Shown here: positions 1,993-46,936 of the stretch, in pieces
Layout of the letters: each line of letters opens with the position of its first letter
Position numbering within the stretch: position 1 is the first letter of the stretch
Origin: an uncultured Planctomycetota bacterium
GTDB lineage: Bacteria > Planctomycetota > Planctomycetia > Gemmatales > Gemmataceae
DNA length: 64,000 nt
Direction of reading: 5' to 3'
Assembly (NCBI GenBank): GCA_963849325.1
Contig: CAWKHF010000005.1
Span: 704,001-768,000, forward strand
The notes under the pieces: model-generated
The model's input: the letters and a program-made list of their open reading frames with translations, nothing else
Databases searched by the model: none
What the model was told of the DNA's origin: nothing
Translations under genes and position numbers: made by a program

Positions 1993-2088
1993 GCCGAATC
2001 AGCCGCTGCACCTGACCGGGGCCGCATGACGGCGTCCCGAGGCATCACGGCTATCGAGCGGCCCCGGCCGGTGAGCGTGTCGTTCGGC
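1993..2088 (+). other. attC-like integron cassette recombination site
   Basis: GCCGAAT...GTTCGGC ends; inner arms CGCTGCACCTGACCGGGGCCGC / GCGGCCCCGGCCGGTGAGCG form an imperfect hairpin with unpaired bases. Confidence 0.7.
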
Positions 2089-2757: not shown

Positions 2758-2854
2758 GCCGAACCCGTCGCTGCCGCAGACCGGGCGGCCATGCCGGCTT
2801 TTCAAGGCGCGCCGTCTCTCCAGGCCGCCTGGCTGTTGAGTTAGGTCGTTCTTT
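2758..2854 (+). other. attC-like site (degenerate right core)
   Basis: GCCGAAC-CCGTCGCTGCCGCAGACCGGGCGGCC...GGCCGCCTGGCTGTTGAGTTAGGTCGTT, same architecture as the other sites. Confidence 0.6.
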
Positions 2855-8157: not shown

Positions 8158-8306
8158 ATCGCCCTGCCAGACGTGGAAGGAAAAAAGCGAAAAGCGGTAC
8201 GTCTTGAGATTTCTGTTGATAGCGAGACAATTTCGGCCCCTTGCGCGAACCTTGGCTGGTGCTTTGGGTGTCGTTTCTGGGTGACATTGTTGCGTTCTCA
8301 GTGGAG

Positions 8307-9155
8307 ATGACGTTCATGCGCGCCCTGACGAGTTGGGAGAGCCTTCAGCCGCTTGTCGGCACAACTTCAGAGAGCGCCGACCTTGACTTCAAAGCGACAC
8401 TGGATCCGTCGAAGGGCAAAATCGAATTTGCGAAGGACGTCGCTGCGCTGGCCCATGTGTTGGGCGGTCATGTGCTTGTCGGCGTATCCACCGATATGAA
8501 TGGAATCCGTTGCACGGGGTTCCACGGCATCGAGAAGGACCTTGCAACCGAGATCACCAAAGTCATCGAGGAACAGGTTAAGGATCGCTGTCGGCCAACG
8601 CCGATCTTCAATGTTCGATCATTTGGCCTGCCGGGATCGCCGAAAGTGGTTGTCGTGGTTGCCATCGAGGCAAGTGCCCGCGCACCGATTGGCGTCTGCC
8701 TTCGCCAAGACAGGGGTGGTCTCCTTGTCGATAAGGGATGGGCATTCCCATACCGCGTCGGCGCACTGACCGAATTCCTTCACCCGGACCAGTTCGGAGT
8801 CTACGAATCCATGACCGCCCGCCGTGCCGCCGCCATCCTGACTTCCATTCCCGCGAACGAACGCGAGCACATCATCCTTCGTTGGGTGGTACATGCAACA
8901 GTGCTGGGCACTGGGTACGGGGACGGTCAGAGCGCTCATCTCGAATCCGTGGCGGTCCGGTTCCTATGTGTCGATCTGCTTGGCAACGCGGCATCGTTCA
9001 GCGAGTTGGATGGGGCAGCACGAATCGACGTGCCGCTTGACCAGATCCAGACCGTTTGGAGGACAACTTGGAGGGCAACGGAAGGTTGGGCGGTTTCGAT
9101 CAACGGCAGTATCCAACAAACCGATGGCGAATGGCAGTACTGGCCCTCGATCTGA
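8307..9155 (+). CDS. AlbA_2/Schlafen-like domain protein (cassette-like gene)
   Basis: ESADLDFK...FAKDVAALAH..GGHVLVGV motif; atypical codon usage; followed by attC. Confidence 0.8.
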   Translation: MTFMRALTSWESLQPLVGTTSESADLDFKATLDPSKGKIEFAKDVAALAHVLGGHVLVGVSTDMNGIRCTGFHGIEKDLATEITKVIEEQVKDRCRPTPIFNVRSFGLPGSPKVVVVVAIEASARAPIGVCLRQDRGGLLVDKGWAFPYRVGALTEFLHPDQFGVYESMTARRAAAILTSIPANEREHIILRWVVHATVLGTGYGDGQSAHLESVAVRFLCVDLLGNAASFSELDGAARIDVPLDQIQTVWRTTWRATEGWAVSINGSIQQTDGEWQYWPSI

Positions 9156-9180
9156 GCCGTCGTTAGCGTAGTGACTCAGG

Positions 9181-9264
9181 GCCGAACACGGCGCTGCGGC
9201 AGACCGGCCACGCGGCTAGCAGTTACTCGTGCTACAGCGCCGCGCTCCGCGTGAGCCGGCAGCT
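9181..9264 (+). other. Left part of an attC-like site interrupted by IS110 (right part at 10718-10733)
   Basis: GCCGAACACGGCGCTGCGGCAGACCGGCCACGCG...GTGAGCCGGCAGCT aligns with the uninterrupted site at 46832-46936. Confidence 0.85.
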
Positions 9265-9279
9265 TCTATGATGCCAGGC

Positions 9280-9609
9280 CACTCGTCAAGAGGAAAATCA
9301 CCTTTTCTCGGCGTTAGTCTCCTCTCTTCCTCCCGGAACAGAGAGAGGCTAGCCGGGGGTCCAGGGGGCGGCAATCAGCGCCCCTGGTCGCCGCACGGAG
9401 GCGGCGAAATCTTCGGCAGGACGCCGACGCTGTCGGGGCTCCCATGCTTCTTATCCGAGCGTGGGTTCAAGACCCTGCCCAAATGGGATGCGAAGAAAGG
9501 TTGCGGGCTGCCCCATCTGAGCGCGAGGATTAAACCCCAGCAGCCGGCCGAGCACACCCGCAACCGCTCAGGAACTTCCCCGACAATGACAACGCCTTGT
9601 CACTATCCG
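9280..9609 (-). ncRNA. Putative bridge/seek RNA region of the IS110 element (ends unknown)
   Basis: Stem 9499-9507/9557-9565 encloses segments matching both sides of the target core. Confidence 0.7.
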
Positions 9610-21840: not shown

Positions 21841-21894
21841 TCCGAGCCTGAAGCGTAAGCGAAGGAAGCTCTTCGCTTACGCTTCAGGCTCGGA
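21841..21894. repeat. REP-like palindrome (GAGCCTGAAGCGTAAGCGAAG family), copy 2
   Basis: Inverted repeat between convergent genes. Confidence 0.9.
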
Positions 21895-42989: not shown

Positions 42990-43064
42990 TCCGAGCCTGA
43001 AGCGTAAGCGAAGAGAGCGATAACCGAAGGTTATCGCTCTCTTCGCTTACGCTTCAGGCTCGGA
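42990..43064. repeat. REP-like palindrome (GAGCCTGAAGCGTAAGCGAAG family), copy 3
   Basis: Inverted repeat containing the stop codon of the convergent kinase gene. Confidence 0.9.
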
Positions 43065-46202: not shown

Positions 46203-46870
46203 ATGCCGACTTCATCCTGGAATATCGTCTTTGTTATCGCCCTCATTGCCTATCTCGGCATTCGAGGAGTGTTCGATCACCGCGCCGAAGCAACGAAAAG
46301 ACCGTCCGCCGAACGGACTGGCGCGATCGGGCTTTGCTGTCCCTCGTCCTACTTGGAAGCCTCCTGCTGCCGGCCGGTTATCTGCTCACGCCTTGGCTCT
46401 CGTTCGCGGATTATCGTCTTCCGGCTTTGGCTCACTGGTGCGGCACGGTGGTGATGGCGGCTGCGCTCTGGCTGTTCTGGCGGTCTCACGCCGATTTGGG
46501 TCCGAACTGGTCGGTTACGTTGGAGCTGCGCAAGGGCCATCAACTGGTCCAGCGCGGCGTTTACCGCTCGATTCGCCACCCGATGTATGCTTCCATCTGG
46601 CTGTTCAGTATGGGACAGGGACTCCTGCTGGACAACTGGCTCGCCGGCTGGTCGGCCCTGGCGTCGTTCGCGCCGCTGTATTTCGTGCGTACGCCCCGCG
46701 AGGAACAGATGATGTGCGAGTTCTTCGGGCAGGAGTATCGTGATTACATGCGGCAGACCGGCCGGCTGTTGCCTCGCCTTTCTGTCAAGCAGACGATCTC
46801 CAGCAATACGAACAATGCCCAGCGAAACCATGCCCAACCAGGCGTTGCAGCAGACCGGCCACGCGAATAA
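46203..46870 (+). CDS. Isoprenylcysteine carboxyl methyltransferase family protein (cassette-like), frameshift near 46310
   Basis: LG.NWS, HQLV..GVYRSIRHPMY, EEQMM...FG.EY..Y; 3' end runs into attC. Confidence 0.88.
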
Positions 46871-46936
46871 CGCCTGTTCGTGCTTCAGCGCCTTCTTCCG
46901 AGTGAGCCGGCTGCTGAGCTTGTTATTTTTTTCGGC
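46832..46936 (+). other. attC-like site, not interrupted (right core degenerate)
   Basis: GCCCAAC (RYYYAAC)-CAGGCGTTGCAGCAGACCGGCCACGCG...GTGAGCCGGCTGCTGAGCTTGTTAT..TTCGGC. Confidence 0.8.

Follow-up and report, generated by a model that had tools for sequence, protein, structure and literature searches.

We analysed a 64,000-nucleotide stretch of contig CAWKHF010000005.1 from an uncultured planctomycete of the family Gemmataceae, hereafter called the window, and found on its minus strand an insertion sequence (IS) that is very probably an IS1111-type member of the IS110 family, with a recombinase gene followed by its own guide RNA. Comparison with natural relatives makes it highly likely that target choice follows two arms in a loop of this RNA, which would act as left and right guides around a 2-bp core. 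The repeat entered by the window copy is, by homology to arrays that adjoin integrases, probably an integron attC site. A first-pass annotation had proposed a target-binding loop of this kind; it covered that loop only, and a second, donor-type loop was found to follow at 9441-9487. RNA-guided targeting by IS110 and IS1111 elements and its natural reprogramming were published in 2024 (PMC11187229; PMC11208160). The features concerned are:

9263..10715, minus strand: whole insertion sequence, very probably of IS1111 type, 1453 bp including one AG core (four-copy comparison and empty site)
9610..10623, minus strand: transposase gene, IS110-family RNA-guided DEDD recombinase of 337 aa (Pfam, NCBIfam, alignment)
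9499..9565, minus strand: target-binding loop module of the predicted seekRNA/bridge RNA (sequence, consensus structure, compensatory changes, covariance model)
9548-9539, minus strand: 5' guide arm (arm 1) GCCGGCUGCU, complementary to the transposase-sense strand over the core and right flank AGCAGCCGGC
9522-9517, minus strand: 3' guide arm (arm 2) GCUCAG, identical to the left flank and core, complementary to the other strand
9441..9487, minus strand: second, donor-type loop module, directly after the target loop and with the same punctuation

Guide arms, insertion flanks and RNA fold

The minus-strand sequence downstream of the transposase gene was exactly as the first-pass annotation had given it. 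The 9-bp basal stem that it described (P1, 9557-9565 with 9499-9507) was present and covaries in relatives; within it, P2 pairs GCUC (9553-9550) with GGGC (9513-9510), and an apical hairpin is formed by 9535-9538 with 9525-9528. Arm 1 had been said to match the target, core included, with one mismatch at the occupied site, and this was read on the plus strand beside the element as GCCGGCAGCT at 9255-9264. Arm 2, described as the reverse complement of CTGAGC, has that hexamer on the plus strand at 10716-10721. Arm 1 is the reverse complement of AG+CAGCCGGC and arm 2 equals GCTC+AG; the two stretches are complementary to opposite target strands, overlap at the core and lie within a conserved fold. 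Both arms were identical across the four copies of the element in the genome, and all four insertion sites read GCCGAAC-spacer-GCTCAG / element / AGC(A/T)(G/A)CCGGCTCACGCGG. Arm 1 fitted the consensus of these sites perfectly; two of the sites were matched without a mismatch and the other two with one.

The relationship between arms and flanks was then followed in relatives. A scan of genome contigs yielded 13 loci, 12 of which were used (L018-L029), and a scan of metagenome contigs yielded at least 519 confirmed relatives, of which 80 were used; the clade is common in environmental metagenomes. Together with the four own copies, 96 loci were examined, and the protein identity of the relatives ranged from 47% to 91%. 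The scaffold GCUCG, 10 nt, GG(G/A)...CUCG, 6-8 nt, AUGGGGCA was present in 85 of the 96; among the 11 loci where it was missing (L026, L028, L039, L043-L046, L092, L096, L103 and L109), some lie on cut contigs and some were recovered later by a covariance model. Loci whose contig ended before the flank were excluded and the remainder dereplicated, giving 54 pairs of arm and right flank with 45 distinct 5' arms. A register tolerance of 0 to 2 nt was allowed, the same for the controls.

At the six non-core positions, 36 of the 45 distinct 5' arms matched their own right flank throughout, six matched at five positions, and one each at four, three and one; against the flanks of other loci the mean was 2.65 positions. 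The 3' arm, scored at four non-core positions in 42 distinct arms, matched its own left flank at four positions in 20, three in 15, two in 6 and one in 1, i.e., at three or more in 35 of 42, with a cross-locus mean of 1.11. For either arm, none of 10,000 permutations reached the observed sum. Moreover, L021 has the core GG instead of AG: the two junctions, the two target arms and the donor arm all show this change. The comparison of loop arms with flanks across homologues had been named in the first-pass annotation as a check on its paired guides around a 2-bp core, and the covariation in 45 distinct natural guides bears this proposal out. Within the clade, a single invariant scaffold is combined with 45 or more natural guides, and these are aimed at attC subtypes CAGCCGGC, TTGCCGGC and CAGCCGCG after GCTCAG, and at palindromes resembling repetitive extragenic palindromes (REP). 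Natural covariation alone thereby confirms, in a distant clade, the RNA-guided targeting described in 2024.

The fold was analysed in an alignment of 65 sequences, composed of the window copy and 64 of 67 distinct segments, with L019, L047 and L093 excluded at lengths above 175 nt. The consensus structure contains 27 pairs, 13 of them with compensatory changes. Paired cells amounted to 96.8% vs 83.3% in shuffled alignments, and cells changed on both sides numbered 218 vs 59.9, a value that none of 500 shuffles attained. When the partners were slid by 1-3 columns, pairing fell to 32-54% of cells. The basal stem was strongly covarying, and GCUC/GGGC and the apical GGGN/NCUC hairpin were almost invariant. 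A covariance model retrieved exactly the four element copies from the own genome, with no orphan copies of the RNA in that genome, and, of 92 related loci, recovered 88, each time at a position 3' of the transposase gene; 64 of these were in the seed and match by construction.

These data also bear on the reading of the stem-loop as a mere 3' stabiliser or terminator of the mRNA, in which the flank likeness would be due to chance or to a carried-over target. Such a role would suit a loop that begins 44 nt past the transposase stop codon, within a 363-nt region that folds only modestly better than its shuffles (z -2.5). It is contradicted by the arms, which vary with their own flanks (0 of 10,000 permutations) while the scaffold stays invariant in 65 sequences; in addition, neither a T run nor a terminator call was obtained at this place. 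We regard this explanation as scarcely credible.

The donor-type loop is closed by CCC (9485-9487) paired with GGG (9441-9443), and its hairpin pairs GGGC (9477-9480) with GCUC (9457-9460). The 3' arm of this loop, AUAAGAAG (9447-9454), reproduces the right end and core of the element except for one additional A. Among the 65 sequences, this arm reads AUAGAAG, the exact right end plus core, in 58, AUAAGAAG in 6 and AUAGAGG in one (L021). The 5' arm CAUCCCAUUU (9481-9490) is, in this subclade, nearly reverse-complementary to the core and left end. Both loops have a common punctuation, consisting of CUCG, an arm, a GGGN hairpin NCUCG, an arm ending in the core, and A(A)UGGG, which suggests that the two-loop RNA arose through tandem duplication of one module. 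The target module measures 67 nt and both modules about 135 nt, sizes that fit the short (70-100 nt) and long (145-170 nt) seekRNA forms reported in PMC11187229.

Some results count against guide arms that work in this manner in both loops. Three of the 45 distinct 5' arms fitted their own flank at four or fewer of six positions, for example L024. The extra A of the donor 3' arm is found in the window copy and its five closest relatives in the alignment. In most relatives, the left-end complementarity of the donor 5' arm extends over only about 4-5 nt; its role as a guide is therefore called tentative, and it may instead be part of an intramolecular stem.

A further candidate was tried and rejected. 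The hexamer AUGGGG (9516-9511), directly after arm 2, equals the first bases of the element left end and was considered as a left-end guide of the 'handshake' type, a term that reportedly stems from the IS621 structure paper. The hexamers differ in 18 of 59 cases with no shared variants, and no covariation was found, which again speaks against a guide at this position.

Two observations were made on the guides of single relatives. In L073 (2679-3002), two guide-RNA modules stand in tandem, and their 5' arms, CGGATGCGCT and CGTATGCGCT, are one base apart; a tandem of this kind is a possible route to new guides. The close relatives L018 and L020 are filed under Chloroflexota (82% identity, same guide, same attC type) and in Betaproteobacteria bins; the explanation would be misbinned contigs or, alternatively, transfer between phyla.

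The element, its transposase and its genomic copies

On the minus strand, the element begins with ATGGGG from 10715 and ends with CATAGA to 9265; the AG core follows the right end at 9264-9263, and a second copy of the core lies at 10717-10716. These boundaries were set because the four genomic copies share their ends and differ in their flanks, and the empty site agrees with them. Inside the ends are two subterminal inverted repeats:

10699..10709, minus strand: left subterminal inverted repeat ATGATGCCGGG, 6 nt inside the left end (direct reading)
9268..9278, minus strand: right subterminal inverted repeat CCTGGCATCAT, 3 nt inside the right end (direct reading)

The repeats are 11 bp long and complementary at 10 of 11 positions. 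Non-coding DNA amounts to 345 nt downstream of the gene (9265-9609) vs 92 nt upstream (10624-10715). The IS1111 group is characterised by subterminal inverted repeats of 7-17 bp, a range that includes those found here, and by a longer non-coding region downstream (PMC11187229; PMC11208160), as well as by a transposase of 330-350 aa with the motif GL-P----S(t)G (PMC11187229). In the window, this motif reads G254 L255 T P257 C N R S S262 G263, with P257, S262 and G263 invariant in an alignment of 11 sequences. The inverted repeats, the 3' region and the motif place the element in the IS1111 type, with the guide downstream of the gene, as the first-pass annotation had stated for elements of this type.

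The protein contains both IS110 Pfam domains, PF01548 (DEDD, RuvC-like, N-terminal) with 72.4 bits and PF02371 (Transposase_20, C-terminal) with 87.4 bits, and scored 203.5 bits against the NCBIfam model NF033542, 'IS110 family RNA-guided transposase', whose cut-off is 140. D12, E58 and D100 were invariant in the same alignment and D97 was conserved in at least 90% of it; from what is known of the family, we take these four residues to be the DEDD tetrad. The open reading frame (ORF), which the first-pass annotation had called intact, is open in all four copies, and the encoded proteins are 99-100% identical. Searched at an E-value of up to 1 over 8800-11200, Rfam gave no family, and a protein search with the transposase in 400 other genomes of the phylum, at E up to 1e-40, gave no match outside the own genome.

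The genome (8.16 Mb in 14 contigs, 84.7% complete) contains four copies of the element. The four-copy alignment showed 30 variable columns out of 1455, none of them within 9435-9576, where both loops lie. The copies are about 98% identical and not the same, indicating that they are not very recent. It could be argued that the element is a relic, with the scaffold and ORF kept, the lineage immobile in this genome and the loop a fossil; the extra A in the donor arm relative to the right end and a perfect empty target left unfilled in the same window would fit this view. Set against it are the four open ORFs with their nearly identical proteins, the absence of all 30 variable positions from the two loops, and the fact that the extra A is common to 6 of 65 sequences from different samples, with ORFs that match the transposase along its length. 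Overall, a relic seems unlikely to us, and we consider the element most likely to be an RNA-guided IS with an intact gene and guide.

Two further observations concern the transposase gene. A 195-nt fragment elsewhere in the genome (L005, G000:C7:287260-287454) has 87% identity to the 5' part of the gene and is probably the relic of an older or related copy. On the minus strand, GGGTTGCTCC (10692-10701, near the left end) can pair with GGAGCAACCC (10627-10636), which contains a ribosome-binding GGAG just upstream of the transposase ATG. Both halves of this hairpin change together in relatives, for example CTCGTTGCTCC with GGAGCAACGAG, which suggests a hairpin that masks translation of the transposase.

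The target repeat and its relation to attC sites

The occupied and unoccupied repeats in the window are the following:

9181..9262, minus strand: occupied target repeat, right part, with the L'' remainder, variable centre, L' and R' GTTCGGC (9181-9187) (sequence comparison)
10718..10733, minus strand: occupied target repeat, left part, with R'' GCCGAAC (10727-10733), spacer and GCTC (sequence comparison)
46832..46922, minus strand: unoccupied repeat of the same family, with the only perfect empty 14-nt target in the genome at 46906-46919

The repeat is an imperfect palindrome of about 100 nt, built of GCCGAAC, a spacer, L'' CAGCAGCCGGCTCACGCG, a variable centre, L' CGCGTGGCCGGTCTGCTG and GTTCGGC; L'' and L' pair, with one bulged base per arm. 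The unoccupied repeat reads AAGCTCAGCAGCCGGCTCAC. An iterated profile found 34 copies of the repeat in the genome. As an empty site, the 14-nt target occurred once in 8.16 Mb vs 0.37 expected, and this one site is located within the repeat family. R'' lies to the left and R' to the right of the element in all four copies and also in L018, L035, L038, L040, L041 and L047.

The identity of the repeat was approached through integrase-adjacent sites in genomes of the same family. These share the pattern GCCGAAC-spacer-(A/C)TCAGC...GGTC...GCAGCG..GTTCGGC and occur as a same-strand series of seven in 8 kb, at a distance of 3.5 kb from the integrase gene (L134), as three within 830 bp (L120) and as two (L123). 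A profile made solely from 13 such integrase-adjacent sites gave 31 matches in the own genome. Sixteen of these are members of the target family, among them one occupied site and the empty one in the window; the other 15 are further sites, two of which also lie in the window (1993-2088 and 2758-2851). In agreement, three relatives with 62-77% identity (L019, L047 and L041) occupy this same position in attC variants that have the canonical boxes ACCTAAC/GTTAGGC, and their 5' arms fit these variants, with TTGCCGGC and CAGCCGCG after the conserved GCTCAG. The planctomycete attC-like repeats named in the first-pass annotation as the target hence have the same architecture as arrays that adjoin integrases.

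Several observations make the assignment to attC less secure. The boxes GCCGAAC and GTTCGGC are each one position off RYYYAAC/GTTRRRY, which we take to be the attC box consensus. No integron integrase above the TIGR02249 cut-off was found in the own genome, which is 84.7% complete; only weak partial matches were obtained there, the strongest of which (85 and 36 bits) came from an ORF of 431 aa on contig 10. In the sampled genomes of the order, however, 93 of 201 had an integrase above this cut-off, including 1 of 6 in the genus. The attC-like sites of the own genome total 49 and are scattered on many contigs, with 27 single sites, 8 pairs and 2 triples. As single-stranded DNA, the empty repeat is predicted to form a hairpin whose energy is not significant against shuffles (z -1.7 and -1.3). 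Finally, 30 sites in the genome lie within one mismatch of the 14-nt target, and only 5 are inside the repeat family; none of the other 25 flanks any of the four copies, indicating that something besides the 14 nt, or history, also matters.

The missing integrase, the many solitary sites, the weak fold energy and the bulged bases on both hairpin arms would all be expected if the guide RNA were read correctly and the target were a REP-like or other genome-wide palindrome that merely resembles attC, and other members of the clade do target a REP-like palindrome. In opposition to this, the same build and boxes recur in same-strand arrays of 3 to 7 repeats with spacings of about 0.2-3 kb that adjoin integrases in the same family, and the profile from integrase-adjacent sites recovers the target family without further input. 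The pairs and triples of the own genome are same-strand with cassette-like spacing, which fits the integrase-less attC clusters described as common in PMC4889954, and L019, L047 and L041 lie in repeats with the canonical boxes ACCTAAC and GTTAGGC. A REP-like or other palindrome is accordingly a rather improbable identity, and we retain attC as the likely target. For integron biology, this would mean that planctomycete and integrase-less attC sites are targeted subtype by subtype, and that a guided element splits the recombination site.

Additional sites of both kinds were noted. The second element copy (L002, G000:C5:64312-67237) is located in the third repeat of a three-repeat same-strand cluster, and about 4 kb from it, at C5:71247-71597, the integron integrase model is matched weakly and in part, within its N-terminal portion. 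The attC-type repeats at 1993-2088 and 2758-2851 (minus strand) share the strand of the occupied site and lie 765 bp from each other; a small minus-strand ORF between them gives the pair the look of a lone gene cassette that lacks an integrase. The integrase-bearing genomes L120 and L134 differ in layout: one has its array past the 3' end of the integrase and pointing toward the gene, the other has it on the 5' side and pointing away, and both integron layouts seem to exist in the family. The REP-like perfect palindrome TCCGAGCCTGAAGCGTAAGCGAAG ... CTTCGCTTACGCTTCAGGCTCGGA occurs three times in the window (15674-15730, 21844-21894 and 42993-43064). The metagenome relative L051 is inserted exactly in the sequence of this palindrome, and L060 and L108, with the same 5' arm, are in closely related sequences; no relative aimed at it was found in the own genome.

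Proposed mechanism and comparison with known systems

We propose that the element excises as a circle. In this form, the joined ends would bring a conserved outward-facing box beside the junction:

9284..9289, minus strand: -35-like box TTGACG, 19 nt ahead of the terminal base at the right end (function suggested by position and conservation)

A TTGAC/T box is found at exactly this 19-nt distance in 60 of 67 distinct right-end tails, and joined ends would put GA-AG-AT 17 nt past it. The promoter may thus be completed only in the circle form, as a junction promoter, such as that cited for ISEc11 in PMC11187229. Against the proposed expression, scanning the linear element yielded neither a promoter nor a terminator, and no RNA sequencing run was listed as containing the element, the listed runs each carrying small shares only. 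From this junction, the transposase mRNA would be made together with the 345-nt 3' non-coding region, in the circle form only. The 3' region would then be trimmed to an RNA with the target loop, or in a longer form with the donor loop as well, held by the recombinase. Arm 1 would pair with the transposase-sense strand of AG+CAGCCGGC and arm 2 with the opposite strand of GCTC+AG, so that the two guides overlap on the 2-bp core, and the donor loop would hold the joined ends via AUA(A)GAAG, the right end plus core. The recombinase would exchange strands at the core, with the chemistry presumably as in the published work on ISEc11, ISKpn4 and IS621. The expected outcome is entry at one position and in one orientation of an attC-type repeat subfamily, between the R''-side spacer and the L'' box. 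Production, trimming and protein binding of the RNA are proposed by analogy with these systems.

The seekRNAs of the attC-targeting elements ISKpn4, ISPst6 and ISPa25 have been shown experimentally (Siddiquee et al. 2024, PMC11187229). As attC-targeting seekRNAs are already in print, the kind is known, and the present element is a distant new example that brings no new principle. Like those three elements, it combines a DEDD transposase (about 340 aa) with subterminal inverted repeats and extended non-coding DNA 3' of the gene, and its target is one end of attC in a fixed orientation. For ISEc11, ISPa11, ISKpn4 and ISPst6, the top-strand match is 5' of the bottom-strand match and the two overlap in the target (PMC11187229); the same order, with an overlap at the insertion point, links the present element with ISKpn4, ISPst6 and ISPa25. 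Unlike them, it has a planctomycete host, its relatives come mainly from environmental metagenomes, and its attC is of the planctomycete-integron type.

When the transposase was compared with 72,556 plasmid records, the plasmid-borne IS110-family genes among the matches listed were at most 33% identical to it, and the best named match among these was an IS1328-type transposase, at 33%; one Klebsiella plasmid relative was examined and was not located in an integron. Published members of the IS1111-attC group are 46-86% identical to each other (PMC11187229), which makes it likely that the transposase represents a lineage separate from this group. Tentatively, and with some doubt, we go one step further and suggest a separate, mainly environmental (soil, planctomycete) IS1111-like clade in which attC targeting was gained independently of the clinical IS1111-attC group, by drift of the guide arms.

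With the IS621 bridge RNA (Durrant et al. 2024, PMC11208160), the element shares an organisation in which one RNA has two internal loops, for the target and, tentatively here, for the joined ends; each loop would have a left and a right guide around a 2-bp core, and guides covary with the flanks. It differs in that its RNA is encoded 3' of the gene, the position found in 93% of IS1111-group elements (PMC11208160), that the order of strand matches is reversed, that the subterminal repeats are long (11 bp), and that the core, on the transposase-sense strand, is AG. ISPa11 (PMC11187229) and ISPpu9 (PMC12288879) are likewise described as inserting, guided by RNA, into a palindrome repeated in the genome, and the clade members L051, L060 and L108 in the REP-like palindrome are comparable to them; unlike ISPa11 and ISPpu9, the window copy is aimed at attC-type repeats. 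Extra copies of ssr9 are reported for ISPpu9 (PMC12288879), unlike the present genome with its lack of orphan RNAs. As a compact pair of a 337-aa protein and an RNA of about 135 nt, with a rigid scaffold and many guide variants, the system may help in the engineering of bridge recombinases.

The neighbourhood of the element was also inspected. The occupied repeat sits between a HicB/HicA-like toxin-antitoxin pair (10803-11233, plus strand) and an ORF with a Schlafen/AlbA_2 domain (8241-9155, plus strand), which stops 26 nt short of the repeat; both the ORF and the pair are cassette-like. At 12968-14497 on the plus strand, 2.2 kb from the IS1111-type element, a 509-aa ORF with a DDE_Tnp_1 transposase domain and a SWIM zinc finger constitutes a second, unrelated mobile element.

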